A stretch of 59,181 nt of DNA. It comes from a virus (Duplodnaviria > Caudoviricetes). Shown here in pieces: positions 12,869 to 58,502 of the stretch. The notes under the pieces are model-generated. The model was not told the origin of the DNA and ran no database searches. It saw nothing but the letters and a program-made list of their open reading frames with translations. Numbering within the stretch: position 1 is the stretch's first letter; each line of letters opens with the position of its first letter. The stretch covers positions 1-59,181 of the IMG/VR virus record IMGVR_UViG_3300027906_000015. One strand, given 5' to 3'. The position numbers and the translations under genes were made by a program.

Positions 12869-13276
12869 ATGATTAATAAGAAAGATGCAATTGCTGAAAG
12901 ATTAGAAAAGAATCTTCCAGGAACAAAAAGATCTGATTATATTGATAAGAAAGATATAAAAGATGATTATGAATTTTCCCGTGATACTTACAAAGAATTA
13001 ATCGCAGTAGGTACACAATCCATGGATTCATTAGCCGAGCTCGCACGCGAGAGCGAGCACCCACGCGCATTCGAAGTATTATCTAATCACTTAAAATCCA
13101 TAGGTGATATCACAGATAAACTTATGAAACTACAAAAGAACAAAAAAGAATTAACACAGGATGATGTGAGAAAAGAAATAACTAATAACAATGTATTTGT
13201 TGGTAGTACAACAGAACTACAAAGAATGTTATTAGATACTAAAGATGATGTAATAGATGTCAAACCAGAGGATTAA
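12869..13276 (+). CDS. gp16: Terminase small subunit gp16
   Basis: DDYEFSR...SEHPRAFEV...NNNVFVGSTTELQ. Confidence 0.9.
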   Translation: MINKKDAIAERLEKNLPGTKRSDYIDKKDIKDDYEFSRDTYKELIAVGTQSMDSLAELARESEHPRAFEVLSNHLKSIGDITDKLMKLQKNKKELTQDDVRKEITNNNVFVGSTTELQRMLLDTKDDVIDVKPED

Positions 13277-14873
13277 GAATACTGAATTTGGTTACTTAGG
13301 CAATCCATCAGTTAAAAGAGATGGTGTTGTTAGTGATTTTACCAAAGAAGAAGTTATAGAATATCAAAAATGTATGAAGGATCCTTCGTACTTTGCTCGT
13401 ACCTATGTAAAAATTATATCTCTAGACGAGGGATTAGTTCCATTTAATTTATATGATTACCAAGAAAAAATGTTTAATCATTTTGGTGATAATAGATTTA
13501 GTATTGTATTAGCATGTAGACAAAGTGGTAAATCTATATCATCAGTGGTATATCTATTGTGGTATGCTTGTTTCCACCCAGAAAAAACTATAGCTATACT
13601 CGCGAACAAGGGCGCGGTCGCACGTGAGATGCTCGCGCGTATCACGCTCGCGCTTGAGAACTTACCATTCTTTTTACAACCTGGATGTAAAGCTTTAAAT
13701 AAAGGATCTTTAGAATTCAGTAATAATAGTAAGATAATAGCAGCTGCAACATCTGGTTCATCTATTCGTGGTTTATCAATTAATTTATTATTCCTAGATG
13801 AGTTTGCATTTGTAGAAAATGATGCTCAATTCTATACATCAACATATCCAGTAGTATCAGCAGGTAAAGATACACAAATAATAGTTACATCTACTGCAAA
13901 CGGTGTTGGTAATGTTTATCATAAACTGTGGGAAGGTGCTACAAATGGAACTAATGAATTTAAACCATTTAGAGTAGATTGGTGGGATGTACCAGGAAGA
14001 GATGATAAGTGGAAACAAGAAACAATTGCTAATACATCTGAATTACAATTCGAACAAGAATTTGGTAATACATTTCATGGTAAAGGTAATACATTAATAT
14101 CAGCTAATCATTTATTAGCACAAAAAGCTGTAGATCCTATTCAATATCAAGAAAATATATGGTTATATAAAGAACCTATAGAAGGACATGATTATATAAT
14201 AACAGTTGATGTAGCCAAGGGTAGAGGACAAGATTATAGTACATTTACTGTAATAGATGTAAGTACTAATCCATTCGATCAAGTAGTAGTATTCAGAGAT
14301 AATAATATATCACCTATGCTATTACCTGATATAATATACAAATACGCTAAAACATATAATGAAGCTTATATCATTGTAGAGTCGAATGATGCTGGTATTG
14401 TTGTATGTAATGGGTTATATTATGATTTAGAATATGAAAATATGTTTGTAGAATCCGCTATTAAAGCTAATGCTATTGGTGTTATGATGACCAGAAGGGT
14501 AAAAAGAATAGGATGTTCTACAATAAAAGATCTAATAGAACAAAAAAAATTAATGATATATGATGCAAATACCATAATAGAAATGGCTACATTTGTTGCA
14601 GTGGGTAAATCATATATGGCTAAAGCACCAAATCACGATGATTTAATGATGAATTTAGTCTTATTTGCATGGTTTACTACAACAGATATATTCCAATCTA
14701 TATCAGATATTGATATGAAAAATATGTTATATAATGAACAATTAAAAGCAATACAGGATGATATGTTACCATTTGGTCTTGTAAATGATGGACAAAGTAC
14801 AGATAAAGGCGAAGGAGATGGGGAAGGTAATGTGTGGTTTGAAGAAGATACCAAAACCACAGGATTATTTTAA
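13257..14873 (+). CDS. gp17: Terminase large subunit gp17
   Basis: Walker A RQSGKS, LLFLDEFAF, TSTANG, nuclease DVAKGRGQDYS and HDD motifs. Confidence 0.97.
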   Translation: MSNQRIKNTEFGYLGNPSVKRDGVVSDFTKEEVIEYQKCMKDPSYFARTYVKIISLDEGLVPFNLYDYQEKMFNHFGDNRFSIVLACRQSGKSISSVVYLLWYACFHPEKTIAILANKGAVAREMLARITLALENLPFFLQPGCKALNKGSLEFSNNSKIIAAATSGSSIRGLSINLLFLDEFAFVENDAQFYTSTYPVVSAGKDTQIIVTSTANGVGNVYHKLWEGATNGTNEFKPFRVDWWDVPGRDDKWKQETIANTSELQFEQEFGNTFHGKGNTLISANHLLAQKAVDPIQYQENIWLYKEPIEGHDYIITVDVAKGRGQDYSTFTVIDVSTNPFDQVVVFRDNNISPMLLPDIIYKYAKTYNEAYIIVESNDAGIVVCNGLYYDLEYENMFVESAIKANAIGVMMTRRVKRIGCSTIKDLIEQKKLMIYDANTIIEMATFVAVGKSYMAKAPNHDDLMMNLVLFAWFTTTDIFQSISDIDMKNMLYNEQLKAIQDDMLPFGLVNDGQSTDKGEGDGEGNVWFEEDTKTTGLF

Positions 14874-14874
14874 T

Positions 14875-14882
14875 TATAAATA
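14875..14882 (+). promoter_or_regulatory. T4-type late promoter
   Basis: TATAAATA upstream of gp18. Confidence 0.8.
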
Positions 14883-14946: not shown

Positions 14947-16659
14947 ATGGCATTTCAAGTATCACCCGGAGTACAAGTCAAGGAAATTGACGCTACTTCC
15001 GTAGTACCTGCCGTTTCCACTAGCATTGGTGGAACCGCTGGGTCATTCAATTGGGGTCCAGTTCTAGAAGCAAAATTAATTAGTTCCGAACAAGAATTAA
15101 TTGATACGTTTGGAGAACCAGATGATAACACGTTTAAATATGTCTTAACAGCAGCATCATTTTTGAAATATGGTAACGCTCTAAGAGTTGTACGTGCAGA
15201 TTCTGGTCACTTAAACGCTACTGCAGATGGTAACGGACTCAAAATTAAAAATGATGCCCATTACGTTGATTCAAGCTATAATACTGGTGCAGGTTCTGTT
15301 GGACACTGGGCGGCTAAACACCCAGGAGCCAAAGGAAATAGTCTAAAAGTTTGTATCGTTACTGAAGGTGTTAATAGTTGGTCAAGTATTACATACGCGA
15401 CTGGCAAAAAATACTCTGAAGTTTTTGATGCAGCTCCTGGTACTAGTGAGTATGCTTCTAATTTAGGTAAAGGGTCTATAGGGGATGAGCTTCACGTTCT
15501 AGTTCTAGATGAAGATGGTTTATTCAGTGGAACAGCTAATACTGTTCTCGAAACTTTCTCTTTCTGTTCACAAGGATCTGATGCAAAAGCCTCAGACGGA
15601 ACTTCTAATTACTACGTAGATGTAGTTAATAATGGTTCTAAATACGTTAGATGGATGGATCATCCAAGTGCATTATCAAATGCAGGTTCTGCAATATCTG
15701 CAGCATCAAGTATAGCTGGTTCAACAACCGCTATAACTGATAGCTTAGCAGGTGGAACTGATGATAATGCTCCAACAGCAGCTGAAGTTGCAGCAGGATT
15801 CGATTTACTCGAAGATGCTGACACAGTAGATGTTGGATTACTATTTGCATATCCAGACGCTAATGGCGCAGAAACAATCGCAGAAGACTTAATCTCAATC
15901 GCAGCAGCAAGAAAAGACTGCATGGCATTTGTATCACCTCCGATAGCAGATTCGCAAGGATCCGCTGCACCGGACACAGATGTTATGGCATTTGCTAATG
16001 GACTTACATCTAGTTCTTATGCTTCTTGTGATTCAGGTGCAATCTATGTTTATGATAAGTACAATGATACTTATCGTTGGATAGGCGCAGCTGGTCATAT
16101 AGCTGGACTTTGTGCAGGAACAGACAGAGTTGCTGATGCATGGTTCTCACCAGCTGGTGTGAACAGAGGGCAATTATTAGGTGTTACTAAGCTAGCTTGG
16201 AACCCTACACAAGCCCAAAGAGATACGTTATACAAAGGTAGAGTTAATCCTATAGTTTCAATGCCTGGTCAAGGCACAATTCTATATGGAGATAAAACTC
16301 TATTAAGTAGACCTTCTGCATTCGATCGTATTAACGTTCGAAGATTATTCATAACTTTAGAAAAAGCTATATCAACAGCAGCTAAAGCTCAACTATTTGA
16401 ATTCAACGATGAATTCACTAGAGCTCAGTTCAAAAACTTGGTAGAGCCTTTCTTAAGAGATGTGAAAGGTCGTAGAGGACTAACTGATTTCAGAGTAGTC
16501 TGCGATGAAACAAATAATACAAGTCAAGTAATTGATGGTAATAACTTTGTAGCTGACATTTTTGTCAAGCCAAATAGATCTATCAACTATATTACATTGA
16601 ACTTTGTAGCAACAAGAACCGGCGTAGACTTCTCAGAAGTTGCTGGTACATCGAGTTAA
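14947..16659 (+). CDS. gp18: Tail sheath protein gp18
   Basis: SPGVQVKEID, WFSPAG, FDRINVRRLF, FEFNDEFTR. Confidence 0.97.
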   Translation: MAFQVSPGVQVKEIDATSVVPAVSTSIGGTAGSFNWGPVLEAKLISSEQELIDTFGEPDDNTFKYVLTAASFLKYGNALRVVRADSGHLNATADGNGLKIKNDAHYVDSSYNTGAGSVGHWAAKHPGAKGNSLKVCIVTEGVNSWSSITYATGKKYSEVFDAAPGTSEYASNLGKGSIGDELHVLVLDEDGLFSGTANTVLETFSFCSQGSDAKASDGTSNYYVDVVNNGSKYVRWMDHPSALSNAGSAISAASSIAGSTTAITDSLAGGTDDNAPTAAEVAAGFDLLEDADTVDVGLLFAYPDANGAETIAEDLISIAAARKDCMAFVSPPIADSQGSAAPDTDVMAFANGLTSSSYASCDSGAIYVYDKYNDTYRWIGAAGHIAGLCAGTDRVADAWFSPAGVNRGQLLGVTKLAWNPTQAQRDTLYKGRVNPIVSMPGQGTILYGDKTLLSRPSAFDRINVRRLFITLEKAISTAAKAQLFEFNDEFTRAQFKNLVEPFLRDVKGRRGLTDFRVVCDETNNTSQVIDGNNFVADIFVKPNRSINYITLNFVATRTGVDFSEVAGTSS

Positions 16660-16672
16660 GGGGGAGTAAGAC

Positions 16673-17203
16673 ATGGCAATATTAGGCATAGACGATTTTA
16701 AATCAAAGCTTACTGGCGGTGGTGCAAGACCTTCCTTATTTAAAGCGACTGTAAACTTTCCATCTTTCGTAGCTTCAGCAAACGTTGAACTTACTTCATT
16801 CTTATGCAAACAAGCTTCTATCCCAGCTTCAACCGTTAATGGTTTTGAAATTGGTTTCAGAGGAAGAAAAATTAAAATAGCAGGAGATAGAGTTTTTGAA
16901 AACTTATCACTTACTATTATTAATGATGCAGAATTTGATGTAAGAAAAGCTTTTGAAGAATGGATGAACGGCATTAACGAACACGTTAACAACACTGGAT
17001 TAACAGATTTAGGTGACTATTCTGCTGATGTAGTTGTTGAACAACTTAGAAAAGACGGATCTACTTCAAAGAGATACGACTTTAGAGGATGTTGGCCATC
17101 TTCCGTAGCAGCTATTGATCTTAATTACGATACAGTAGACTCTATAGAAGAATTCACAGTAGAACTACAGGTTCAATATTGGGAATCAGACACTACTTCG
17201 TAA
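16673..17203 (+). CDS. gp19: Tail tube protein gp19
   Basis: GGGARPSLF, FRGRKIKIAGDR, IEEFTVEL. Confidence 0.95.
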   Translation: MAILGIDDFKSKLTGGGARPSLFKATVNFPSFVASANVELTSFLCKQASIPASTVNGFEIGFRGRKIKIAGDRVFENLSLTIINDAEFDVRKAFEEWMNGINEHVNNTGLTDLGDYSADVVVEQLRKDGSTSKRYDFRGCWPSSVAAIDLNYDTVDSIEEFTVELQVQYWESDTTS

Positions 17204-17207
17204 GTAG

Positions 17208-17215
17208 TATAAATA
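17208..17215 (+). promoter_or_regulatory. T4-type late promoter
   Basis: TATAAATA upstream of gp20. Confidence 0.75.
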
Positions 17216-17222
17216 TGTTAGA

Positions 17223-17244
17223 AGAGGGGATTAATTTCCCCTCT
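17223..17244 (+). terminator. Stem-loop after gp19 (terminator or RNA-stabilising hairpin)
   Basis: AGAGGGGA-ttaatt-TCCCCTCT; no clear U-tail. Confidence 0.5.
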
Positions 17245-17265
17245 GATAATATGAGGAATTAAAGT

Positions 17266-18750: not shown

Positions 18751-18755
18751 ATTTT

Positions 18756-18763
18756 TATAAATA
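18756..18763 (+). promoter_or_regulatory. T4-type late promoter
   Basis: TATAAATA upstream of the prohead core genes. Confidence 0.75.
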
Positions 18764-18782
18764 AGAGTACGAGGAAAACTTT

Positions 18783-19168: not shown

Positions 19169-19169
19169 T

Positions 19170-19814: not shown

Positions 19815-19835
19815 ATTACTTTGGGAGACAAAGAT

Positions 19836-21053: not shown

Positions 21054-21079
21054 TTGCAAACCTTATAGGGGAAAACAAA

Positions 21080-23116: not shown

Positions 23117-23148
23117 GGGTTTACTTTTTAAGTAAACTGTGGTATAAT
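23117..23148 (+). promoter_or_regulatory. sigma70-like early/middle promoter (uvsY)
   Basis: GGG-TTTACT-17 nt-TATAAT with TGTGG extended -10. Confidence 0.85.
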
Positions 23149-23599: not shown

Positions 23600-24482
23600 A
23601 ATACATGATTTTAAATATGAATGGAAGGGCAACTTCGGTCACGCTCGCGCGTGCATAGAAACAGCTTTAGATTTAATAGATCATAGTGAATATCATCTCA
23701 ATATCTGGAATCATACAGATTTAACTAAAATCCCCCACCAAGAAGCTTTAATTGTTAAGCCTACTGCACCTACTTCAAAACATTTTGTGATTGATGATTT
23801 AGGTTATGCTAATAGTTCTTGTTTAGCATTTAATGAACCATTTGAAGTAGAAATGAGAGAATGGGTTGATACAGATCATAATGCAATAAAAGCTTTAATT
23901 GAAACTAAAGCTAATAAGTGGGATGATTCTGCTATACTTAAATGGCGAAAACCTAAAAACGTACCAAGAAATCATACATTAGTTATTGGCCAAATGCCTA
24001 AGGATGAAACAGTAGAAGGATTTGGATTTGGTGGACATATTAGAAAATTAGATCTAATAGTAGAAAGATTAGTTAAAGAAACAGATTATCCTATTGTAGT
24101 TAAAATGCATCCTAAGTTACAAAAGAGAGATAGATTAATAGAGAAATGGAGAACGTGGGGTGTTGATGTAAGAGAAGGATTTGAATCTATACATGATATA
24201 CTACCGCGCACACGCGTAGCCATTATAGATAATAGTACTGCTGGAATAGAATGTTTGATGCACAGTGTACCTATTATAAGTTATGGTTGGCCAGAATATC
24301 ATTGGGTTACAAAGAAATTACAAGTACTACCCCAACTCCCTAGGTTAGTTAAAGATTTATCATGGTATCAAAAAGAATATGCAGATAATTTTATATCATG
24401 GTATATACATGAATACCTATGTTATGATGTTAATAGTACTGAAAGAAGATTAAAAGAAATATTGGAATCATGGAAACTGTAA
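23589..24482 (+). CDS. Capsule polysaccharide biosynthesis (KpsS/KpsC-like) glycosyltransferase
   Basis: GQMPKDET, VVKMHP and NSTAGIECLMHSVPIISYG motifs; probable GTG start at 23589. Confidence 0.65.
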   Translation: MAYKIHDFKYEWKGNFGHARACIETALDLIDHSEYHLNIWNHTDLTKIPHQEALIVKPTAPTSKHFVIDDLGYANSSCLAFNEPFEVEMREWVDTDHNAIKALIETKANKWDDSAILKWRKPKNVPRNHTLVIGQMPKDETVEGFGFGGHIRKLDLIVERLVKETDYPIVVKMHPKLQKRDRLIEKWRTWGVDVREGFESIHDILPRTRVAIIDNSTAGIECLMHSVPIISYGWPEYHWVTKKLQVLPQLPRLVKDLSWYQKEYADNFISWYIHEYLCYDVNSTERRLKEILESWKL

Positions 24483-25945
24483 TAGTAAATAAGGTTAATG
24501 AAACATTCTTACAAATAGAATGTGAACCTAGTACTGAAAGAGAATTATCAGAGCATTTCTGTTTTTATGTACCTGGATATAAGTTCATGCCCGCGTACCG
24601 CAACCGCGTGTGGGATGGTAAAATACGTTTATTTGATATGCGTAAAAAGACTTTATATGTTGGGTTATATCATTATTTAAAAGAATTTTGTGAAGAAAGG
24701 GATTATAGTTTAGTCTCAGATATAAATCTATTACCTGAGTATAATGATGATTTAGTAGAGGCTACGTTAGAAGAAACAACGTTACCCAGTCATATATCAC
24801 CAAGGGATTACCAGTTAAACGCGCTTAGGCACGCGCTACGGAGCTCTAAATCGCTGTTATTATCACCTACAGCATCAGGTAAGTCATTAATCATCTATTT
24901 ATTGGTAAAACACTACCTAAAATATAATGATAATAAAGTCTTAATTATTGTACCTACAACATCATTAGTTGAACAAATGTATAGTGATTTCTCAGAATAT
25001 TCTAAAGAAGATAATACATTTGATATAGAAAAATTAGGACATAAGATATATGGTGGAGCAGATAGAACAACAGATAAAAGAATAATTATATCCACCTGGC
25101 AATCCCAACATAAGTTACAAGCTAATATGTTTAAAAATTATGGTATGGTAATAGGAGATGAAGCACATCAATTTAAAGCTAAATCCCTTACCTCTATTAT
25201 GGAGAAATGTGTTAATGCACAATATAAGATTGGTACTACTGGAACATTAGATGGAACACAAACACATCAATTAGTATTAGAAGGATTATTTGGTCCAGTA
25301 TTTAAAGTTACAACTACTAAAGCTTTAATGGATAGAGATGAATTAGCTAAGTTAGATATTCAAATATTATTATTAAAGTATAAAGAAGATTTCTGTAAAC
25401 ATATATCAAAAGCTAAGTATCAGGAAGAATTAGATTTTATTGTAGGATATACCCCCCGCAATAATTTTATCAGTAACTTAGCATTAGATCAAAAAGGAAA
25501 TACTTTAATATTATTTAATTATGTAGAGAAACATGGTAAACCTCTTCATGATATGTTAAAAGATAAGATTGAAAAAGATAGAAAACTATTTTATGTTTCA
25601 GGCGAAACACCTGTAGATGATAGAGAACAAATAAGAGCTATCACTGAGAAAGAAAATAATGCAGTTATTGTTGCTTCACTTGGAACGTTTTCTACTGGGG
25701 TTAATATAAAAAGATTACATAATTTAATATTTGCTTCACCTTCTAAATCCCAAATAAGAGTATTACAAAGTATAGGTAGAGGACTTCGTGTGAGTGGAGA
25801 TAGTATAAATACTACTGTATATGATATAGCTGATGATCTTCACTATAAATCGAAGAAGAATTATACCTTAGATCATGCAGCAGAAAGAATTAAAATATAT
25901 TCAAAAGAAAAATTTAAATACAAAATTTACGAGATAAATATATAA
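24470..25945 (+). CDS. uvsW: DNA helicase UvsW
   Basis: SPTASGKS, DEAH, GTTGT, LQSIGRGLR SF2 motifs. Confidence 0.95.
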   Translation: METVIVNKVNETFLQIECEPSTERELSEHFCFYVPGYKFMPAYRNRVWDGKIRLFDMRKKTLYVGLYHYLKEFCEERDYSLVSDINLLPEYNDDLVEATLEETTLPSHISPRDYQLNALRHALRSSKSLLLSPTASGKSLIIYLLVKHYLKYNDNKVLIIVPTTSLVEQMYSDFSEYSKEDNTFDIEKLGHKIYGGADRTTDKRIIISTWQSQHKLQANMFKNYGMVIGDEAHQFKAKSLTSIMEKCVNAQYKIGTTGTLDGTQTHQLVLEGLFGPVFKVTTTKALMDRDELAKLDIQILLLKYKEDFCKHISKAKYQEELDFIVGYTPRNNFISNLALDQKGNTLILFNYVEKHGKPLHDMLKDKIEKDRKLFYVSGETPVDDREQIRAITEKENNAVIVASLGTFSTGVNIKRLHNLIFASPSKSQIRVLQSIGRGLRVSGDSINTTVYDIADDLHYKSKKNYTLDHAAERIKIYSKEKFKYKIYEINI

Positions 25946-37033: not shown

Positions 37034-37489
37034 AAAATGGTAAGAAACACAATGAACGTACCACGTTCACTATTCGTAGGCTTTGATAGTCTATTCGATG
37101 AGTTGGAGAGAATTCATTCTTCAGCTAGATCAAACGATAACTATCCACCACATAATGTGGTTAAGATCGATGAGGAGAAGTTCCTAATTGAGTTAGCTTT
37201 AGCTGGCTTCAAGAAAGAAGACATTCACGTTGAAGTTAAAGATGGTATTCTTAAGATCAAAGGCGAAATGAGTAATGACGATCGTGAGTTCGTATACAAA
37301 GGTATTTCATCCCGCAAATTTGAGAAGAGCTTCCGCCTCTCAGAGTTCTGCGTAATAGATGGTGCCGATTTCGAGGATGGTATACTCGTAGTTTACGCTA
37401 GAGTAGAACTTCCAAAAGAAAGGCGTCCAAGGAAGATCGATATAGGATCTACTGGGGCATCAACAAAGAAATCATTTAATATAAAATGA
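37031..37489 (+). CDS. hsp20: Small heat shock protein (Hsp20/IbpA-like)
   Basis: NYPPHN, IELALAGF, KGISSRKF, DGIL. Confidence 0.93.
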   Translation: MKMVRNTMNVPRSLFVGFDSLFDELERIHSSARSNDNYPPHNVVKIDEEKFLIELALAGFKKEDIHVEVKDGILKIKGEMSNDDREFVYKGISSRKFEKSFRLSEFCVIDGADFEDGILVVYARVELPKERRPRKIDIGSTGASTKKSFNIK

Positions 37490-41036: not shown

Positions 41037-41925
41037 TATATACGATAACAAAACTGTAAAACGTATGGACTATGAATCATTCGAGCAATTCGAATCGGTT
41101 CTCTATAGATTAGCTGAAGGAAATAAATATGAAAAGAAAGCTGATGCACCGCTTATTAGTCCGGCTATATATAAACCTGACACGACTCGGGCGAACGAGA
41201 ATGTTCTTGCTTGGGGTGGTTTTGGTATTGTGGACGTTGATGATTTCAGTGGTGATATAAAGGAGATAGAAAAGAAATATGAAACTTATAAGTATGTTTG
41301 TTATAGCACTGCAAGCAGTAGCGTTAACAGCCCTAAGTTTAGGCTTGTCTTTCCTCTTAATAAATTTATTGATAAAACTGATATCAAGCATTTTTGGTAC
41401 GCATTAAATAAAGAGATAGGAGATATAGCAGATGCCCAAACAAAAGACCTCTCACGTATGTATTACGTTCCCTCAAAATACAAAAACTCATTCAACTTCA
41501 TATTCTCCCACGATGGAGAAATTATGGACCCAGATGAAATTATGGCAAAGCACAAATACATCGTACCATCTGAAAACTTTTACGATAGACTTCCAGATGC
41601 CATTAAAAAAGGATTAATGGAACATCGTAAAGGTCAATTAACAAATACAGATATATCATGGACAGGATATAAAGATTGTCCGTTCGTTAATCAAAAGAAA
41701 ATCCAACAATATAAAGGTTTAAATGAAGGTTGGTATTATGCAATGTATCAATTGATGGTATCAATAGCTGGTAATGCTATAACTAAAGGTTATCCAATTA
41801 CAGCAAAAGAAATAGAATTTATAATTAGAGATTTAGATTCAGAAACAGGGAATTGGTATGTTAAAAGACCAATTAGCAAAGAAGCAGAACGAGCTATTGA
41901 GTTCGTATTTAGGAAAAACATTTAA
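41008..41925 (+). CDS. AEP/PrimPol-type DNA primase
   Basis: ISPA, IVDVD (motif I), YST and KFRLVFPL; helical C-terminal domain. Confidence 0.65.
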   Translation: MGISLTIFDSIYDNKTVKRMDYESFEQFESVLYRLAEGNKYEKKADAPLISPAIYKPDTTRANENVLAWGGFGIVDVDDFSGDIKEIEKKYETYKYVCYSTASSSVNSPKFRLVFPLNKFIDKTDIKHFWYALNKEIGDIADAQTKDLSRMYYVPSKYKNSFNFIFSHDGEIMDPDEIMAKHKYIVPSENFYDRLPDAIKKGLMEHRKGQLTNTDISWTGYKDCPFVNQKKIQQYKGLNEGWYYAMYQLMVSIAGNAITKGYPITAKEIEFIIRDLDSETGNWYVKRPISKEAERAIEFVFRKNI

Positions 41926-45789: not shown

Positions 45790-46498
45790 AGAAGGGTTAT
45801 ATCGACTTCGTGAGAAATTACTTAACGAAGGATATATTATTGAAACAGAAAGATGGCAAGGTGGTACTGATCATCCTGCTTTCTTAGAAATACTACATGC
45901 TGATATGGTTTGTCCAATGTCAGATACAGCTGAAGAAGCAAATGATTTATTAGGAGCTGTTCAACCATGGGCAGATGAACACTTCGAAGAAAGAGTTGGT
46001 GGTATACCTTGTAACCCACCGCCAAGTCATGTACACTGGTTAAAAGATACAGATAAATATTTAATGGATGAAGCATTTTCTCATTCTTATCCAGAAAGAA
46101 TGTGGCAAGATACAGAACAAATGGGTGTTAGATTTAATATTGCTAATCTAAATACTGCAGTAGAATTACTTAAAAAAGAACCTACAACAAGACAATGTTA
46201 TATACCAATATGGTTTCCAGAAGATGGTACGGCCGCTCTCGCGGGCGAACGCGTCCCGTGCACGTTCGGGTGGCACTTTATGTTACGAGATAATAAATTA
46301 CATTGCGCGTACCACATGCGCTCGTGCGATGTTATGCGTCATTTACATAATGATTTATATTTTGCTAATAGATTATGTTTATGGTTAATAGAACAAACAG
46401 GATTAGATGCAGTACCTGGTACTATACACTTTAGTGCTAGTTCTTTACATTGCTTCGAAGTAGACAAATATTCTTTAAATCAAATAGTAAACGGATAA
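45770..46498 (+). CDS. Thymidylate-synthase-superfamily enzyme, dCMP-modifying type
   Basis: TRQ, catalytic PCT, RSCDVMRHLHND with Asp at the pyrimidine-specificity position, SLH; probable TTG start at 45770. Confidence 0.8.
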   Translation: MKAKDLKEGLYRLREKLLNEGYIIETERWQGGTDHPAFLEILHADMVCPMSDTAEEANDLLGAVQPWADEHFEERVGGIPCNPPPSHVHWLKDTDKYLMDEAFSHSYPERMWQDTEQMGVRFNIANLNTAVELLKKEPTTRQCYIPIWFPEDGTAALAGERVPCTFGWHFMLRDNKLHCAYHMRSCDVMRHLHNDLYFANRLCLWLIEQTGLDAVPGTIHFSASSLHCFEVDKYSLNQIVNG

Positions 46499-47850: not shown

Positions 47851-48292
47851 TACGAAATACGATCACAGATATTTAGATTTAGCCAAGTTCTTTTCTACAT
47901 GGTCGAAAGACCCGAGCGCGCAGATAGGCGCGGTCGCGATAGGAGATAAAGGTCAAGTATTAGCCCAAGGGTATAATGGATTTCCTAGAAAGGTAGAAGA
48001 AACAGAATTAAGATTAAATGTAAGAGAAACAAAATACAAATATGTAGTTCATGCTGAAATGAATTGCATATACAATGCTTCATATAATGGAGCTAATTTA
48101 GATGGTAGCACGATGTACGTATACGGACTTCCCGTATGTCATGAGTGTGCAAAAGCCATTATTCAAGTTGGTATAAAAAGAGTAGTTATACCATTTGATC
48201 ATTTCACTAAGGTACCTGAGAGATGGATGGAATCTATCAAACTATCTCAAGGTATGTTTAATGAAGCTGGAGTCGAATATGATTCCATTTAG
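47840..48292 (+). CDS. cd: dCMP deaminase
   Basis: SKDP, GYNG, HAE, PVCHEC. Confidence 0.92.
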   Translation: MGSNTKYDHRYLDLAKFFSTWSKDPSAQIGAVAIGDKGQVLAQGYNGFPRKVEETELRLNVRETKYKYVVHAEMNCIYNASYNGANLDGSTMYVYGLPVCHECAKAIIQVGIKRVVIPFDHFTKVPERWMESIKLSQGMFNEAGVEYDSI

Positions 48293-50528: not shown

Positions 50529-51870
50529 TGATGAGGATTACTGCAGAAGAGTAATACCTTTTCTTAAGAAAGATTATTTCGAAGGAACACATAAAGTTGT
50601 GTTTGACCTTATTGTTAGTTTTGTAGCTAAACATAATAAGATTCCTTCAGGTAAAATATTAGAATTAGAACTTAAGAAAGTTAGTGCTAGTGATGATGTA
50701 TTAACTCAATCTAATAATCTTATAGATGAAATAAAAGTTAAATCTGATATAGAGATAGATTACTTAGTTGATGAATCGGAAAAGTGGTGTAGAGATAGAG
50801 CAATCTATAATGCCATAATGGAATCGATTCAGATCATTGATGGAAAAGGAAAAGATAAAGGTGAAGGAGCAATTCCAGAAATACTATCGAATGCTTTGGG
50901 TGTTAATTTTGATCCAAATATTGGTCACGATTATATCGATAACTCTTCGGACAGATTCGATTTCTATAACACAACCGAAACAAGAATCCCGTGGGATTTA
51001 GATTACTTTAATAAAATAACGAAAGGTGGTTTACCGAATAAAACCTTGAACATCGCCATGGCAGGTACCGGTGTAGGTAAATCACTTTTCATGTGCCATT
51101 GTGCAGCAGCTAATTTAGAGATAGGTAAAAACGTTCTTTATATTACTATGGAAATGGCAGAAGAAAGGATTGCAGAAAGAATCGATGCAAACCTTATGGA
51201 TTACCCAATCCAACAATTAAATACATTACCTAAAAATGTATTCGATTCTAAGATACAAAACATTGCGAAAGCTTCTATAGGTAAACTTATAGTGAAAGAA
51301 TATCCAACAGGAGCAGCGCATACAGGTCATTTTAGAGCTTTATTAAATGAGCTCAAATTGAAAAAGAATTTCATGCCAGATATCATTTATATTGATTATC
51401 TGAATATTTGTGCTTCTAGTCGCGTCCGTGGGCTCGGTGGAAGTATAAATACTTACTCATATGTTAAATCTATTGCGGAAGAGTTAAGAGGTTTAGCAGT
51501 TGAGTTTAATGTCCCAATCGTGAGTGCAACGCAAACGACTAGATCTGGTTATAGTAATACTGATGTAGGATTAGAGGACACTTCGGAATCATTTGGTTTG
51601 CCAGCGACGGCCGACCTCATGTTCGCTTTGATTAGTACAGAGGAACTTGAGGATTTAGGTCAGATACTAGTAAAACAATTGAAAAATCGTTATAACGATC
51701 CAACTAAATACAAGCGTTTTGTAGTTGGTATAGATCGTTCCCGCATGAAGTTATACGATGTAGAGGAGTCAGCCCAAACTGATATTATATCAGATCTTGG
51801 TCCTGATAAACCAATAAATAAATTCGGGGAAGGCGAAGTAAAAGATCCTTACTCTGAATTTAAAATATAA
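50473..51870 (+). CDS. gp41: Replicative helicase gp41
   Basis: AGTGVGKS, IDYLN, SATQ, ESFGLPATAD, QLKNRY. Confidence 0.96.
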   Translation: MELDITNQIQTHILNHLINDEDYCRRVIPFLKKDYFEGTHKVVFDLIVSFVAKHNKIPSGKILELELKKVSASDDVLTQSNNLIDEIKVKSDIEIDYLVDESEKWCRDRAIYNAIMESIQIIDGKGKDKGEGAIPEILSNALGVNFDPNIGHDYIDNSSDRFDFYNTTETRIPWDLDYFNKITKGGLPNKTLNIAMAGTGVGKSLFMCHCAAANLEIGKNVLYITMEMAEERIAERIDANLMDYPIQQLNTLPKNVFDSKIQNIAKASIGKLIVKEYPTGAAHTGHFRALLNELKLKKNFMPDIIYIDYLNICASSRVRGLGGSINTYSYVKSIAEELRGLAVEFNVPIVSATQTTRSGYSNTDVGLEDTSESFGLPATADLMFALISTEELEDLGQILVKQLKNRYNDPTKYKRFVVGIDRSRMKLYDVEESAQTDIISDLGPDKPINKFGEGEVKDPYSEFKI

Positions 51871-54496: not shown

Positions 54497-55903
54497 ATGC
54501 GTTTTAGTTCATATATAAAACAACCGCTAGTAGAAGCAGTAAAACTAACTCCGTCTGAGTTAGAAAAGCAAAACTCTAGAACAAAAGAAGATCGAATTGA
54601 CATCCTTACAAGATTAATAAAGGATAAAACTCCTTTAGAACTTGCAAAAGGTGGATCTTTCACGGTTGGAGAAATAGAATCAGCATTAGTTAATTGCGCA
54701 TTATTTAAAAAGAATCCTGACCATTTCGGAAAGGTTGGTTTCCCTCTTATAGCAACAGATGGAACCGAATATAAATCAAATGATCTAGCTAAATCCAAAG
54801 TATTTGGAGGAGGCGTTGGTGGTGCTGGTTCTGGTACCAAAGATACAGAAAGAAATGAATCACATAACGCGTGTATGATGCGCGCGGTAGTTGATGATGG
54901 ATATAATAATGATTTAGATCATTTTAATGATGAGCGTATAGCTCAAGCTTATAAAGATAATGGATCAGCTAATATATCTGCAAATACAGATAAGATATTA
55001 GAAACCCCAGAGAATTGGTGGTTATCATCTTATATTATATCTAAATTCTTAGCAGAAAAAGGATATATTAATAAAGATCAAATTTTTGATCGTGGTGGTC
55101 CTGGTATGACCTTAGTATATGCTCTTAAAAATGAAGCATATAGAAACAATGGATTTAAACCATTAAAAGATGATAAGTGGAATCCAGGAGATGTATGGGC
55201 AATAGAAGATGGATTAGATCTTAAATCAGAATTAGATACTTCCTCAGTAGGTGCATTTAATAGATCAATAATGAATTTATTTGTTGATAGAAAATTAGTT
55301 GCTATATCATTGAAAGGTCCTGAATCAAAATCCCCACCTCCTAATTCAACATATAATCTTAAACAACCACCTGAATCCCCAGTACATAAACTTAAAGAAA
55401 TTAAATTAGAATCCGGACGTGGTGACTTCTGGTCAGCAAAAGGAATGGAAATAGTTTATGATACAGGTTCAATGACCTTTAAAGATAACTCTCCAGGTGG
55501 AACAAACAAAGCTGAAATAAAAGGTAAGAAAGCCCGTGGTGGTGGATTATCTTGGGGTATTATGATAGAATTTATAAAGAGAGAAGCTAGAAGAGCTCCA
55601 CCAGAACACGCAAAAGGAATTAAACCAACCGCTAAAAAAATAGCAAAAGGTAATGCTAGAGCTACTAAATTAATGTTTGGTTTATTTAATCATTTCTACC
55701 CAAGTGTACCTGAAAAGGAATTCAAAGAAGAATTAGCTAAGAAAGATTGGACGTGGATCTCAGCTAAACTTGGTGCTTTATACGTTGCTTATTACTTATC
55801 TAAGAATACTGGAACTAAAGCTAATGCAATGATAACTAATTTCGTTAACTACGCTGGATCTGATTTATTAGATTCTAGTACATATATTAAAGTAGGAAAA
55901 TAA
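54497..55903 (+). CDS. Putative internal head protein with restriction-endonuclease-like motifs
   Basis: CTS-like N-terminus; E...WNPGDVW...ISLK. Confidence 0.5.
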   Translation: MRFSSYIKQPLVEAVKLTPSELEKQNSRTKEDRIDILTRLIKDKTPLELAKGGSFTVGEIESALVNCALFKKNPDHFGKVGFPLIATDGTEYKSNDLAKSKVFGGGVGGAGSGTKDTERNESHNACMMRAVVDDGYNNDLDHFNDERIAQAYKDNGSANISANTDKILETPENWWLSSYIISKFLAEKGYINKDQIFDRGGPGMTLVYALKNEAYRNNGFKPLKDDKWNPGDVWAIEDGLDLKSELDTSSVGAFNRSIMNLFVDRKLVAISLKGPESKSPPPNSTYNLKQPPESPVHKLKEIKLESGRGDFWSAKGMEIVYDTGSMTFKDNSPGGTNKAEIKGKKARGGGLSWGIMIEFIKREARRAPPEHAKGIKPTAKKIAKGNARATKLMFGLFNHFYPSVPEKEFKEELAKKDWTWISAKLGALYVAYYLSKNTGTKANAMITNFVNYAGSDLLDSSTYIKVGK

Positions 55904-57144
55904 TGGAATCATTTAAAACATTTAAACAACCCCTACAAGAAGCAAAGAATACTCATATGACCCATATAGAGGATTTAGTTCTTGATGGAGGAGTCAAGGG
56001 AGCCAGACAAGCGATTTTAGCGCTCAGATCACTAAGAGACATGCTTGCTGGGAACACACCCACTGCTGCTGATATCACAGTTAAATGGGACGGTGCTCCC
56101 GCCGTATTCGCAGGTATAGATCCTAGTGATGGAGAATTCTTCGTTGCTAAGAAAGGTATATTTGCAAAAAATTCCAAGGTATATAAATCGCATGATGATA
56201 TAGATGCTGATACCTCTGGGGATTTAGCTAAAAAACTTAAATTGGCTTATGACCATTTAAAAGACTTGGGCATCGATGGTGTTATCCAAGGCGATTTTAT
56301 GTTCGATAAAAAAGATTTAGGTTCTGAAAAAATAAATGGAGTTAAATATACTACATTTCATCCTAATACTATAATGTATGCAATACCTGTAGGAACGCCT
56401 TTAGAAAAGAAAATAAAGAAAGCAAAGATAGGTATTGTTTGGCATACCAAATATAAAGGATCATCATTTGAAACAATGAATGCGGAATTTGGTGTAGAGA
56501 TTTCTTCTAAGTTAAAAAGTTCTTCTAAAGTTTGGCAAGTAGATGCAACATTACCACAACAAGAAGGTGCGGTATTAGATGCAGATGATACGAAAGCAGT
56601 TACAACAGCATTATCTAATGCAGGTAAAACATTCAAAAAGATTGCTTCATCTACCCTAAAAGAAATAGAAGAAGATTCAGAATTAAACTTATTAATCAAT
56701 ACTTTTAATAATACAAAGGTAAGAGCAGCAGAAAGAATTACTAATCCAAAAAAACATGTTAAAGAATTAATCGATTGGGTTAACCTCAGATACTATAAAC
56801 AAAAAGAAAAATTAAGTTCTGATAAAGGTAAAGCTGGTGTTGATGCAAAAAAAGAAAGAATTATGACATTTTTCTCAACGAAAAACAAAAAAAATCTTGA
56901 AAATGTCTTTAATTTACAGAATTACATCGTGGATGCGAAATTAATTATTATAAATAAACTAAACGGTCTAAGTAATATTGGAACGTTTTTAAAAACTAAG
57001 TCCGGATTTAAAGTAACCAACCCAGAAGGTTTTGTTGCTATAGATCGTATGGAAGGTGGAGCGGTTAAGTTAGTTGATAGATTAGAATTTTCTACAAATA
57101 ACTTTTCTGCCGATATAATAAAAGGCTGGGATAATCCAGGCTAG
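55903..57144 (+). CDS. Ligase-like nucleotidyltransferase (DUF6267-like)
   Basis: KWDG, QGD, EGFV and VKL motifs of the ligase/capping superfamily. Confidence 0.6.
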   Translation: MESFKTFKQPLQEAKNTHMTHIEDLVLDGGVKGARQAILALRSLRDMLAGNTPTAADITVKWDGAPAVFAGIDPSDGEFFVAKKGIFAKNSKVYKSHDDIDADTSGDLAKKLKLAYDHLKDLGIDGVIQGDFMFDKKDLGSEKINGVKYTTFHPNTIMYAIPVGTPLEKKIKKAKIGIVWHTKYKGSSFETMNAEFGVEISSKLKSSSKVWQVDATLPQQEGAVLDADDTKAVTTALSNAGKTFKKIASSTLKEIEEDSELNLLINTFNNTKVRAAERITNPKKHVKELIDWVNLRYYKQKEKLSSDKGKAGVDAKKERIMTFFSTKNKKNLENVFNLQNYIVDAKLIIINKLNGLSNIGTFLKTKSGFKVTNPEGFVAIDRMEGGAVKLVDRLEFSTNNFSADIIKGWDNPG

Positions 57145-57160
57145 ATGGGACCAAGGATAA

Positions 57161-57529
57161 ATGCAATCATTTAAAGAGTACATAGAATTCGACGAAGCCA
57201 TGACAATGGCTACCCGAATGAAAATGAAAGCAGCATTCCGAAAAAATAAAGCTAAGATAGCTTTAGGAAGAAAAAAAGCTGCGAAGAAACTCGCCTCCCC
57301 AGAAAAGCTTAAAGCAAGAGCTACAAAGCAAGCCCGAAACGTCCTAATTAAAAAACTTCTTAAGAATAAAGATAAGAAGCAATTATCATATGCTGAAAGA
57401 CAAGCTTTAGAAATTAAGATGGCTAAAAAACAGGGTGCTATAATGAAGATAGCTAAAAAGCTTTTACCCGCAGTAAAAAAAGCAGATAGAGAAAAAATGA
57501 AAGCGAGGCGAAATGACACATCAAGTTAA
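57161..57529 (+). CDS. Highly basic Lys/Ala-rich putative internal (DNA-binding) protein
   Basis: Composition; MQSFKEY...DEA N-terminus. Confidence 0.6.
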   Translation: MQSFKEYIEFDEAMTMATRMKMKAAFRKNKAKIALGRKKAAKKLASPEKLKARATKQARNVLIKKLLKNKDKKQLSYAERQALEIKMAKKQGAIMKIAKKLLPAVKKADREKMKARRNDTSS

Positions 57530-58502
57530 ATCATTCTCAGATTATTTAAAAGAAGATACAAATGAAATAACATTTGCATTCGGTAGATTTAATCCACCAA
57601 CAAGTGGACATGAAAAATTAATGAATGCGGTAAAGAAGTTATCAAGAGGTGGGACATATAGAATATATCCAAGCCAATCTCAAGATGCTAAAAAGAATCC
57701 GCTAGATTTTAAACTTAAAGTTAAGTTTATGAGAAAGATGTTTCCTAAACATGCTAGGAACATTATGAAAGATACAGGAATGAGAACAGCATTTGATGTT
57801 ATTGTTGCTTTATATGATCAAGGATATACTCAAGTTACATTTGTAGCTGGTGAAGATAGAGTTATAGAATTTGATAAACTCTTTAACAAATATAATGGTA
57901 CAAAAGGAAGACATGGTTTTTATCAATTTAAAAATGGTGTTAAAGTTGTAAGCGCGGGAGCGCGTGACCCAGACGCAGAAGGTGTTGAGGGTATGTCAGC
58001 TTCTAAACTAAGAGCAGCAGCTAGTGATAATGATTTAAAACTTTTTGCTAAAGGTATGCCAAAAGGATTTAAAGAAGTTGAAAATCTATTCAATGCAGTT
58101 AGAGCAGGAATGGGTTTAAAAGAATCGAAAGATTATAGAAAGCATGTACAATTAGAAAAGGTTTCCGATAGAAGAGAAGATTATATAAAAGGAAAACTAT
58201 TTAAAACTGGTGATGATGTTATAGTTAAAGAAAGCCAAGAGGTTGGAAAGATTACAGTTCTTGGAGCTAACTATGTTATGGTTGATTTTGGAAATGAAAC
58301 CAAAAAAAGATGTTGGCTCGAAGATATAGAATTATTCGAGACATTGGAAACAATGGCTGGAGAATGGGGTACTGATAAATCAGTTAAAACTTATCAAAAG
58401 GATACTCCAGGACAAAAAGAGATTTTAGATTTCAATAAGTTTATTCTTAATAATAAGAAAAAATTTAAAGAAGAAAATAAACAAAGATGGAAAAAAAGCT
58501 AA
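57513..58502 (+). CDS. HxGH-family nucleotidyltransferase (cytidyltransferase/NMNAT-like)
   Basis: FGRFNPPTSGH, KNPL, AGEDR, SASKLR. Confidence 0.8.
   Translation: MTHQVKSFSDYLKEDTNEITFAFGRFNPPTSGHEKLMNAVKKLSRGGTYRIYPSQSQDAKKNPLDFKLKVKFMRKMFPKHARNIMKDTGMRTAFDVIVALYDQGYTQVTFVAGEDRVIEFDKLFNKYNGTKGRHGFYQFKNGVKVVSAGARDPDAEGVEGMSASKLRAAASDNDLKLFAKGMPKGFKEVENLFNAVRAGMGLKESKDYRKHVQLEKVSDRREDYIKGKLFKTGDDVIVKESQEVGKITVLGANYVMVDFGNETKKRCWLEDIELFETLETMAGEWGTDKSVKTYQKDTPGQKEILDFNKFILNNKKKFKEENKQRWKKS

Follow-up and report, generated by a model that had tools for sequence, protein, structure and literature searches.

A phage genome in which short stretches of AT-rich genes switch to GC-rich, CpG-dense codons raises the question of what these stretches are and how they got there. 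We examined this question in a 59-kb contig (59,181 nucleotides, 34% GC) from a marine T4-like phage; the whole contig is referred to here as the window. A sequence-only reading had described CGCG-rich islands written into the genes through synonymous codons. Every coordinate that it cited held the sequence described, with the uvsY island at 23229 being a weak one.

The check that this reading had named for CGCG clustering was a codon shuffle, and we shuffled synonymous codons within genes (n = 300). The window contained 41 CGCG sites, compared to a shuffle mean of 17.9 and a maximum of 29. CGCG neighbors no more than 40 bp apart numbered 15 versus 0.53, CGCG pairs spaced 8 to 13 bp apart numbered nine versus 0.07, and 40-bp windows with at least five CpG numbered 349 versus 53.6. 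None of the 300 shuffles reached the observed value for any of these four counts. The CpG total was not raised (1061 versus 1106.5 in shuffles); thus, the signal was clustering and not enrichment. At the codon level, 13 segments scored at least 12 (2.7 expected) and five scored at least 18 (0.06 expected), with 0.86 segments expected per shuffle at a score of at least 14. A count made alongside the relatives' contigs gave 12 codon-level islands in the window versus 0.8 expected. The proposed 8- to 13-bp pairing of CGCG was therefore upheld as an excess, but there was no sharp period: neighbor distances ranged from 2 to 28 bp in three island-rich genomes.

The islands are listed in Table 1. All of those found were in genes and none were in intergenic DNA, and the sheath, portal, and capsid genes (14947 to 22393), which are the window's most conserved late genes, contained no island. 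The Hsp20 patch, which was CpG-poor (2 CpG), had been absent from the earlier list. A separate GC-rich stretch at 5409 to 5567 coded for collagen-like Gly-X-Y repeats and was distinct from the CpG islands.

Table 1. Islands found in the window, with coordinates in window positions
Patch	Position	Strand	Gene or ORF	Peptide	Score	Remark
gp16 patch	13034..13073	+	terminase small subunit gene 12869-13276	AELARESEHPRAF	18.8	
gp17 patch	13599..13661	+	terminase large subunit gene 13257-14873	LANKGAVAREMLARITLALEN	34.9	largest
Small patch	23636..23654	+	PF05159-like ORF 23568-24482 (between uvsY and uvsW)	GHARAC		in frame
Alternating CCGCGCACACGCG patch	24204..24216	+	PF05159-like ORF 23568-24482	LPRTRVA		
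uvsW first patch	24581..24610	+	uvsW helicase gene 24470-25945	KFMPAYRNRV	22.0	
uvsW second patch	24818..24856	+	uvsW helicase gene	NALRHALRSSKSL	14.5	
Hsp20 patch	37310..37351	+	Hsp20 gene 37031-37489	SRKFEKSFRLSEFC	17.9	GC3-rich
Small patch	41179..41199	+	ORF 41008-41925		15.1	borderline
TS-like modules A1 + A2	46229..46276	+	TS-like gene 45686-46498, catalytic Cys region	TAALAGERVPCTFGWH	28.2	
TS-like module B	46304..46327	+	TS-like gene	CAYHMRSC	16.2	
cd patch	47903..47938	+	dCMP deaminase gene cd 47840-48292	SKDPSAQIGAVA	22.2	
Small patch	51604..51624	+	gp41-like helicase gene 50473-51870		15.3	borderline
Small patch	54867..54887	+	ORF 54497-55903 (phrog_1462, unknown function)	NACMMRA		in frame
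Small patch	57951..57978	+	cytidylyltransferase-like gene 57513-58502	SAGARDPDA		

The islands were supported by independent assemblies from three studies, in which contigs reproduced those that they covered (gp16, gp17, the uvsY-uvsW ORF, and uvsW). Specifically, Logan contigs from runs X1 and X2 covered 12800 to 13685 and 23563 to 25000 with 0 to 1 differences, and contigs from run X3, which belonged to a separate study, covered 23476 to 23915 and 24555 to 24850 with 0 differences. The run with the best coverage may be the source sample. In X1, 879 of the 1341 contigs placed on the window were 90 to 95% alike, which indicated that related variants occurred together in one run.

The patches were about 20 to 65 bp long, with modules of 21 to 30 bp often serving as the building units, and had a GC content of about 70%. 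Alanine was encoded by GCG 33 times and by GCC 7 times, and similar preferences were seen for threonine (16 ACG versus 3 ACC), serine (11 TCG versus 2 TCC), and leucine (11 CTC versus 1 CTG). Each island codon made up just 3 to 8% of the usage within its own amino acid (CGC, 3%; TCG, 4%; ACG, 5%; CTC, 5%; GCG, 7%). Island CpG numbered 140 compared to 106.7 under a G+C-preserving null, in a test that partly used islands of contig G001 that were themselves chosen by CpG count; the excess from the window islands alone was 58 versus about 42. Codon choice maximized CpG (NCG, or NNC before G) beyond mere G+C. The C/G skew was -0.01 in the islands versus +0.155 across the window.

The claim that the recoding was silent needed to be qualified. 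Relatives encoded the same peptides with AT-rich codons, which placed the feature at the DNA level over the genes, and the protein did not require the islands. However, replacements occurred within patches, both conservative (K>R and M/I>V) and others (T>A and I>T). All five islands tested lay at the 84th to 97th percentile of amino acid conservation within their own genes, with the gp16 patch at the 97th.

No motif of at least 6 bp was common to the 21 nonhomologous islands. The top 6-mer, CGCGAG/CTCGCG, was found in eight of the 21 compared to 3.7 in the null, and GCGCTCG was mildly enriched (six islands versus 1.4). We considered whether the islands serve as mRNA hairpins or as Z-DNA torsional sinks. 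In favor of this idea, CGCG is self-complementary, and paired copies can make small stems. The cd patch was the sole island with a clearly low RNA folding score (z = -2.98; 1 of 200 shuffles was equal), and GC-rich alternating purine/pyrimidine runs of at least 12 bp numbered three versus 0.06 expected. The other side of the evidence was that nine of ten islands had z scores between +0.94 and -1.89, no better than their dinucleotide-shuffled controls, these three runs were the only ones in 59 kb, and most islands were not strictly alternating. A role as RNA structure or Z-DNA seemed very unlikely.

The main result came from the comparison with relatives and went beyond what the sequence-only reading had foreseen: the patches were dimorphic and moved between lineages. 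The islands were alternative CpG-maximized nucleotide versions of short coding segments. Judging from the homologues, each segment appears to come in two versions across the related marine T4-like phages, one AT-rich and common and the other dense in CpG, whose peptides are identical or almost so. Conservation among relatives, a further check on the islands, gave a divided answer, as near-identical CpG forms occurred in separate clades but close relatives carried AT forms with the same peptides (gp16, gp17, the TS-like gene, and cd).

In the case of gp16, the patch spanned codons 56 to 68 of terS. The CpG haplotype was found in 23 of 78 relatives, and the AT form was found in the other 55, whose TerS identity was 58 to 91%. 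The CpG form was marked by an AGY serine codon (AGC), whereas the AT form used TCN, a difference that single synonymous steps cannot bridge. The eroded carriers L002 and L078 retained AGT.

The gp17 patch consisted of two modules, at about 13599 to 13625 and 13626 to 13661. The full form was present in 7 of 81 sequences, which fell in three separate clades of a tree computed without the island, and half forms were present in others. The window and relative L047 differed at 2 of 63 nucleotides in the island but at 383 of 1539 (25%) elsewhere in the gene (p = 7e-6). Conversely, L047 and its sister L040 differed at 19 of 63 nucleotides in the island versus 215 of 1542 elsewhere (p = 0.001). Distant carriers had the same string, with 2 to 7 of 63 nucleotides different. 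Parsimony placed bursts of 16, 14, and 12 AT>GC changes on three branches, all with one resulting sequence, and a single opposite burst of 10 changes on L002, in a reconstruction whose AT-preferring root also inflated AT>GC counts in the remaining gene (5115 versus 2048). Because the bursts gave identical strings, they pointed to transfer and not to independent fixation. Synonymous-codon differences per comparable codon were 0.25 in the island versus 0.40 in the remaining gene for carrier pairs, and 0.55 versus 0.43 for noncarrier pairs. Although only 560 bp apart, the gp16 and gp17 patches were unlinked: L069 and L072 carried only the gp17 patch, and L020, L026, L027, L033, and others carried only the gp16 patch.

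Other patches had similarly mixed distributions. Among 78 homologues of the TS-like gene, some had all three modules (A1+A2+B), others had A1+A2, A1 alone, or B alone, and the rest had no module; the window, L103, and L105 carried module B, as did a separate set without A1/A2 (L130, L132, and L133). The cd patch, GCG GTC GCG ATA after GGC, GGT, or GGA, was present in 9 of 55 sequences (the window, L103, and seven of another clade). The first uvsW patch was limited to the window and L306, and partly L323, with CGC (R) and GTG (V) in the window versus AAA/AAG (K) and ATG/ATA (M/I) in relatives. The second was common to the close clade L306 to L313 and was gone at identities of 67% or less. The 23636 patch was shared with L306, L310, L312, and L370 but differed in L307 and L308, and the 24204 patch was conserved and bigger in L307/L308 (G003) and in L310 to L312. 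G001 was patched at the same place as the 57951 patch, and the Hsp20 patch was also found in G001 and G003. G002, a relative syntenic across the window, had no island excess (2 versus 1.85).

Module edges were sharp in gp17, gp16, the TS-like gene (three modules), cd, and uvsW, and patch history conflicted with flank history in gp17, the TS-like gene, cd, and gp16. The presence of CpG forms on backbones that were about 25% diverged, off the gene tree, indicated that they were transferred between lineages by short-patch homologous recombination.

These distributions bear on the idea that the islands are conserved rare-codon clusters that slow ribosomes for cotranslational folding or assembly, and are GC-rich merely because rare codons are GC-rich. 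The patches were indeed built of the genome's rarest codons, with segment scores far above those of shuffles; they sat in conserved protein segments; and uvsW patch 2 and the Hsp20 patch were kept across a clade. However, close relatives encoded the same peptide with common codons, and G002 had the same proteins without a cluster excess. What was kept was the exact string and not rarity, which was not conserved across homologues (7 of 81 for gp17 and 23 of 78 for gp16). In addition, NCG was favored over equally rare NCC, residues were shifted toward those with GC-rich codons, and the sole tRNA gene in the window was that for tRNA-Ala(UGC). We consider this explanation unlikely.

An import of GC-rich homologues from other phages or hosts was also considered. 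The patchy %G+C that intragenic recombination gives cyanophage psbA and psbD is a documented marine precedent, and the serine codon-box switch and the amino acid shifts fit a foreign origin. Against this, all of the listed gp17 carriers had AT-rich flanks (31 to 39% GC in 22 of 22 IMG/VR and 25 of 25 metagenome carriers, two sets that overlap in part). A GC3-coded version of the gp17 patch plus flank had 0 matches in metagenome_contigs, and the gp16 core had a single match among 185,579 species genomes, a chance one from a high-GC actinobacterial MAG, where it lay in an unrelated gene. Thus, no GC-rich donor was found in the collections searched. Moreover, the terminase genes have no host homologue, and about 95% of the residues encoded by the gp17 patch were also the majority choice among the relatives. 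Import from a GC-rich donor was largely refuted.

Free-standing seg and mob endonucleases of T4 cause marker exclusion, which is a precedent for the idea, also raised by the sequence-only reading for homing endonucleases, that the CpG alleles are escape forms. They would resist a homing endonuclease, a restriction enzyme, or a CRISPR-type nuclease aimed at the AT form and would spread by repair. Nuclease genes at the boundaries of phage-phage exchange have been reported (PMC10448857). The patch and module sizes of 21 to 65 bp fit nuclease or guide targets, the patches lay in conserved segments, and dimorphism and horizontal spread were seen. In searches for GIY-YIG, HNH, and HNH_3 domains, however, none passed the cutoff in G000 to G004, which are partial genomes (12 to 72% complete) and include the 130-kb island-rich G001. 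The sole hit was a subthreshold GIY-YIG match in G004. Pfam identified no domain of these three types among the 67 window proteins and 10 accessory ORFs beside islands in relatives (77 proteins). Furthermore, one or two changes would be enough for escape, which accounts neither for the 15 or more changes seen nor for the CpG preference. Escape recoding was thus judged improbable.

The islands could instead be cis-acting CpG-cluster sites: loading or binding sites for a protein that recognizes CpG or GCGC, clusters of modified or hypermodified cytosine on both strands that would guard conserved segments against nucleases or guide-directed effectors, or, in gp16 and gp17, pac-like terminase sites. 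The maximization of CpG over G+C, the equal C content of the two strands, and the mild enrichment of CGCGAG/CTCGCG and GCGCTCG agree with this idea. The pac sites of several phages lie within the terS gene, as the gp16 patch does. Three island-rich contigs (the window, G001, and G003) have TS-like, AsnB-like, and MazG-like genes, with an Asp aligned to the TS Asn in the TS-like enzyme; island-free G002 lacks these genes and avoids CCGG, GCGC, and CGCG, which the island-rich genomes do not. On the other hand, no motif was common to most islands, spacing was not fixed, and no island was found in intergenic DNA. The patches were also dispensable, as the gp16 form was missing in 55 of 78 relatives, the full gp17 form was missing in 74 of 81, and G002 had no excess. 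A location in or near terS fit just 2 of the approximately 14 patches (gp16 and gp17), and the gp16 patch was not kept by all phages sharing the terminase, with 55 of 78 carrying the AT form. The assembled contigs, a kind of data that would hide such ends, gave no pile-up where molecules start or end. In 32 UvsX-anchored loci, the islands showed no association with the putative genes for cytosine modification: island density was 0.86 per 10 kb with the TS-like/AsnB-like module (n = 4) and 0.83 per 10 kb without it (n = 28). We regard cis-acting sites as a doubtful explanation overall. None of the four functions first proposed (a dimeric-protein binding site, a Z-DNA torsional sink, a cytosine-modification target, or endonuclease escape) gained direct support.

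The reading that we favor, at a probability of roughly 45%, is that the islands are recoded, CpG-maximized haplotypes that pass between phages as short patches through gene conversion, with an inferred transmission advantage of CpG. Exchange between lineages would presumably take place inside co-infected cells, and some copies were later worn toward AT by point mutation. The patch was gained repeatedly while the reverse was seen once, and CpG was preferred over equal-GC codons; together, these observations suggested that CpG density aids transmission at the DNA level. The preferred mechanism would be a conversion drive that operates where diverged genomes are still able to pair and in which heteroduplex repair or resolution is biased to the CpG strand. 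Close behind such a repair bias ranks a role in cis for dense, possibly modified, cytosines. A drive acting on conserved segments predicts that conservation and GC3 are generally linked, and the link was weak (Spearman r of about 0.1) and equal in island-free G002, which counts against the drive, as does the lack of an island in the window's most conserved late genes. Likewise, a search for Vsr gave no match over the cutoff in the five contigs, all of them partial genomes, so no repair-biasing enzyme was found. Free recombination within a population would also make two old haplotypes look patchy, with no advantage needed. The proposed model leaves unexplained the origin of a 60-bp patch with a serine codon-box switch and the reason why CpG is favored.

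A bolder reading, which we hold to be possible but doubtful, is that marine T4-like phages harbor selfish or protective CpG patches that spread horizontally by conversion, through either a CpG-strand repair drive or a modified-cytosine shield against sequence-directed nucleases. In the latter case, dense arrays of modified cytosines on both strands would guard those parts of essential genes that are least able to mutate. To our knowledge, a CpG-directed conversion drive has not been described in viruses.

Several known systems resemble these patches in part. In psbA and psbD of marine T4-like cyanophages, patchy %G+C was attributed to intragenic recombination (Zeidner et al. 2005, cited in Sullivan et al. 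2006, PMC1484495), and the psbA study, as summarized there, used 30-nt sliding windows and described recombination between co-infecting phages (PMC1484495). The two cases share marine T4-like phages and short stretches of deviant G+C within a conserved gene. A GC-rich parent (Synechococcus-type genes) was known for psbA, whereas here the deviant patches and the conflicting phylogeny of an intragenic mosaic were present but an identifiable parent lineage was not found in the collections searched. Our patches also lie in core phage genes without host copies and are shorter (20 to 65 bp), about 70% GC, and CpG-maximized. Rare codons conserved at particular positions, as described by Chaney and colleagues (Chaney et al. 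2017, PMC5438181), are a similar case in that genome-rare codons are grouped at set positions in conserved proteins. Unlike those clusters, the present patches were present or absent among close relatives and identical across distant ones, with a CpG bias among equally rare codons and amino acid shifts.

SegF, SegG, and MobE are free-standing T-even endonucleases that mediate intronless homing and marker exclusion, which likewise involve short polymorphic stretches in conserved genes and conversion between co-infecting phages. Here, however, no endonuclease gene was found near the islands or in the five contigs (GIY-YIG, HNH, and HNH_3 searched), and the recoding went far beyond what immunity needs. 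GC-biased gene conversion acts at recombination hotspots of eukaryotes and has been proposed for bacteria; our literature search found no description of it in phages. The patches share with it local AT>GC clusters that include nonsynonymous changes and spread regardless of protein function. The bursts of 12 to 16 AT>GC changes per patch and the K>R, I>T, and M>V shifts would fit such conversion, but the counts came from root-biased parsimony and the identity of the resulting strings spoke for transfer. The patches differ from this process in that the bias would have to favor CpG specifically over stretches of tens of bases, and in showing no general conservation-GC3 link. Finally, the GC clusters of yeast mitochondria, palindromic mobile elements that have inserted mostly between genes and are associated with recombination, are also short GC-rich elements of variable presence in a very AT-rich genome. 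In contrast to those clusters, nothing has been inserted in the phage genes, and it is the existing codons that have been rewritten in frame.

The window was an entire viral contig (G000) with a G+C content of 34.3%, and every gene in its 59,181 bp was on the plus strand. It carried a T4-type structural and packaging set (neck, gp15, TerS, TerL, sheath, tube, portal, prohead protease, scaffold, and gp23 capsid protein) and a replication and recombination set (UvsY, UvsW, gp46/47-like, clamp, clamp loader, RegA, family-B DNA polymerase, UvsX, and gp41-like helicase). The closest named phage was Phage C48C1 (Kyanoviridae), with about 66% nucleotide identity across the terminase genes, and related marine contigs numbered in the hundreds.

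The sequence-only reading had pointed to CpG-rich patches inside these AT-rich genes, and each stretch that it quoted was found at its given position. The proposed clustering of CGCG was borne out by a shuffle control in which synonymous codons were permuted inside genes (300 replicates). The window contained 41 CGCG compared to a shuffle mean of 17.9, and 349 of its 40-bp windows held at least 5 CpG compared to a mean of 53.6; both values were reached by 0 of 300 shuffles. The CpG total was not elevated (1061 versus 1106.5 in shuffles), which indicated that CpG was concentrated rather than enriched, and 7.4% of it sat in 13 patches covering 0.68% of the window length. A codon-level log-odds scan found 13 segments scoring at least 12 (2.7 expected) and five scoring at least 18 (0.06 expected), the latter in gp17, the thymidylate synthase (TS)-like gene, cd (the dCMP deaminase gene), uvsW, and gp16. 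Patches at 23636, 24204, 54867, and 57951 were smaller and lay in frame inside ORFs, the patch proposed at 23229 was present but weak, and the scan placed no island in the sheath-to-capsid block. The reported purine/pyrimidine alternation was also seen, as three GC-rich alternating runs of at least 12 bp compared to 0.06 expected. CGCG pairs 8 to 13 bp apart were indeed in excess (9 versus a shuffle mean of 0.07; 0 of 300 shuffles), but this was a mere tendency, since distances across three genomes ranged from 2 to 28 bp and ruled out a fixed spacing.

Contigs independently assembled from public runs of three studies, one run being possibly the source sample, matched positions 12800-13685 and 23121-25000 with 0 or 1 differences. 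This agreement indicated that the covered patches (gp16, gp17, the ORF between uvsY and uvsW, and uvsW) were not assembly artefacts. Summed contig depth jumped 20- to 200-fold at two places in all four runs; the likely reason is that contigs of many phages were drawn to two regions, a portal segment of high conservation and a scaffold stretch of low complexity.

The patches were strings of the genome's rarest codons. Among equally GC-rich synonyms, CpG-creating codons were favored in the islands of the window and of the related contig G001: Ala GCG 33 versus GCC 7, Thr ACG 16 versus ACC 3, Ser TCG 11 versus TCC 2, Pro CCG 5 versus CCC 1, Leu CTC 11 versus CTG 1, Gly GGC 12 versus GGG 3, and Arg CGC 10 versus CGG 2. 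Under a null that held G+C constant, the islands contained 140 CpG compared to 106.7, a set that included eight G001 islands selected by CpG count; on their own, the window's nine islands contained 58 compared to about 42. C/G skew was balanced in the patches (-0.01 versus +0.155 for the window overall). The recoding was not, as had been supposed, purely synonymous: uvsW patch 1 encoded Arg and Val where relatives carried Lys and Met/Ile, Ala replaced Thr in the cd patch, and G001 patches showed K>R, I>T, and F>L shifts relative to G002, a syntenic relative.

Some deviant codon runs in the window are not of the CpG kind: two GC3-rich runs in the gp47-like gene (scores of 15.1 and 15.0) had 0 to 1 CpG. 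Likewise set aside was a GC-rich stretch coding for a collagen-like Gly-X-Y repeat; it belongs to a tail-fibre-like protein that also has a Peptidase_S74 chaperone domain, and its GC is driven by amino-acid composition and unrelated to the patches. Transfer RNA supply did not account for the patches, as the window had tRNA-Ala(UGC) as its sole tRNA gene. Ala GCG was the most frequent island codon, yet GCA was also common in bulk.

The gp17 patch was compared in 81 sequences with amino-acid identities of 76 to 89%. The full 63-bp patch occurred in seven of them, the window and six homologous loci of related phages (L001, L003, L005, L047, L069, and L072). The second module alone was present in L007, L019, L032, L035, and L045 and degraded in L002, and the first alone in L037, L039, L040, and L054. 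The remaining homologues encoded the same peptide with TTA-, GCA-, and AGA-type codons. When the patch was left out of the tree, the complete form was scattered over three separate clades. The window and L047 differed at 2 of 63 nucleotides within the patch compared to 25% outside it (p=7e-6), whereas L047 and its sister L040 differed by 30% within and 14% outside. By parsimony, AT>GC changes came in bursts of 16, 14, and 12 on three different branches, each yielding the identical string, and a single reverse burst of 10 fell on L002, although the absolute AT>GC excess was inflated by an AT-preferring root. Synonymous divergence between carrier pairs was 0.25 in the patch and 0.40 in the rest of the gene; the corresponding values for non-carriers were 0.55 and 0.43. 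The low carrier divergence would be compatible with recent spread or with constraint.

In the case of gp16, the CpG form was found in 23 of 78 sequences and was marked by Ser AGY, which is unreachable from the TCN of the other 55 through single synonymous steps; the eroded carriers L002 and L078 retained AGT. The patches in gp16 and gp17 lie 560 bp from each other, and each was present independently of the other. The 78 TS-like genes showed the module combinations A1+A2+B, A1+A2, A1 only, B only, and none. Among 55 cd sequences, the patch was found in the window, in L103, and in seven sequences from a different clade. In uvsW, patch 1 was confined to the window and L306, with a partial copy in L323. 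Patch 2 was clade-wide, as was the 24204 patch. On the strength of these alignments, the islands are CpG-maximized alternative haplotypes of short coding segments that coexist with AT forms, and the CpG haplotypes evidently pass among diverged lineages via short-patch recombination, with some copies eroding. In run X1, 879 of 1341 contigs were 90 to 95% alike, and such co-occurrence of related variants in single runs makes co-infection and exchange plausible.

Import from GC-rich genomes was rejected, since AT-rich flanks were found in 22 of 22 IMG/VR and 25 of 25 metagenome gp17-patch carriers listed (partly overlapping sets). Scans of viral_contigs, metagenome_contigs (two), and genome_contigs for a GC-rich donor gave only AT-rich carriers and one match judged to be chance, that of the gp16 core among species genomes. 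The gp17 patch joined to a GC3-coded flank had 0 matches among 241 million metagenome records. The suggestion of a shared binding site failed: at most 8 of the 21 islands had any one 6-mer in common, and at most 6 any one 7-mer, which argued against copies of one site. RNA structure was rejected as a general account (fold z-scores of +0.94 to -1.89 in nine of ten islands), with cd an exception at -2.98. Escape from homing endonucleases fared no better, as no GIY-YIG, HNH, or HNH_3 match over the cut-off was found among 77 proteins or in five contigs (12 to 72% complete); these contigs also gave no Vsr match over the cut-off. Moreover, escape from a nuclease takes 1 or 2 changes and the patches carry at least 15, so an additive process is needed. 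We infer that a patch gains a DNA-level advantage from its CpG density, and our preferred mechanism is a conversion bias that would favor the CpG strand.

Our second choice is that densely packed and possibly modified cytosines would act in cis. The TS-like protein (listed below with its neighbors) has an Asp (HND) that aligns with the base-specifying Asn of thymidylate synthase, and T4 dCMP hydroxymethylase has Asp at this position. It adjoins an AsnB-like amidotransferase and a dCMP deaminase, and a MazG-like pyrophosphatase, an N6/N4 methylase, and a PF05159-like transferase are also present. Together they appear to be candidates for a cytosine hypermodification set. The set was missing from G002, bar a distant dCMP deaminase match (28% identical), and the methylase was missing from island-rich G003 too. 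However, the contrast between island-rich contigs and G002 (four contigs) vanished in 32 UvsX-anchored loci, where islands per 10 kb were 0.86 with the module and 0.83 without it; the idea that patches are cytosine-modification targets was thus not supported. In the more distant relative L152, a C-5 cytosine DNA methylase (4669-5871) lay directly downstream of the TS-like gene. Palindromes were avoided in G002 (L194-L199; CCGG 37 versus 76.5 expected, GCGC 42 versus 61, CGCG 26 versus 35), with a surplus of GGCC (185 versus 110) and CGGC (142 versus 76); the window, G001, and G003 showed no avoidance of CCGG, GCGC, or CGCG. Avoidance in G002 may reflect restriction pressure against unmodified DNA.

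Positions of features in the window
Feature	Position	Strand
Tail-fibre-like gene	3786-6485	+
Collagen-like repeat	5409-5567	
Depth spikes	17684-18090; 19719-20125	
PF05159-like transferase	23568-24482	+
uvsW patch 1	24581-24610	
uvsW patch 2	24818-24856	
gp47-like codon runs	27351-27389; 27711-27734	
MazG-like pyrophosphatase	40629-41036	+
tRNA-Ala(UGC)	42158-42233	+
N6/N4 methylase	44450-45391	+
TS-like protein	45686-46498	+
AsnB-like amidotransferase	46450-47850	+
dCMP deaminase	47840-48292	+
DUF6267 protein	55903-57144	+

Island load is a lineage trait. Segments scoring at least 14 numbered 12 in the window (shuffle mean, 0.83), 15 in G001 (130 kb; 2.5), 7 in G003 (51 kb; 1.0), and 2 in G002 (120 kb; 1.85), which was syntenic with the entire window yet had no island excess. 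The strong islands of G001 and G003 were all in frame within ORFs, and several covered catalytic motifs (ligase-like KxDG, polymerase, and a putative ribonucleotide-reductase-like ORF assigned from its motif). The DUF6267 protein of the window has a VKWDG (KxDG, ligase-like) motif, where G001 (56510-56547) and G003 (1060-1115) have a GC patch. The five window islands tested ranked in the 84th to 97th conservation percentile of their own genes. A general GC3 gradient with amino-acid conservation was rejected, as the genome-wide correlation was weak (r about 0.1) and not stronger than in island-free G002.

Should a conversion bias or an advantage to the DNA itself drive their spread, the patches would add a new type of evolutionary unit to the abundant viruses of the ocean, one that is sub-gene in size, unseen at the protein level, and mobile through recombination. 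They would also directly gauge co-infection and recombination frequency among diverged marine phages and mark places where DNA-level selection trumps codon usage. In practice, they offer sharp-edged recombination markers for metagenomes and a caution for codon-usage and host-prediction methods that assume compositionally uniform phage genes.

A search of the open-access literature gave no earlier account of such CpG-rich recoding in T4-like phages. Classical conserved rare-codon clusters were rejected as an account because the patches are dispensable, kept as strings, and CpG-biased; rare codons are common to both (PMC5438181), but dimorphism is found only in the CpG patches. The nearest described phenomenon is the mosaicism of cyanophage psbA and psbD, whose patchy %G+C was ascribed to intragenic recombination (PMC1484495). 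We rate the CpG patches as a variant of such intragenic mosaicism, with the difference that the GC-rich parent of the psbA/psbD mosaics is known, whereas the collections searched held none for the CpG patches.
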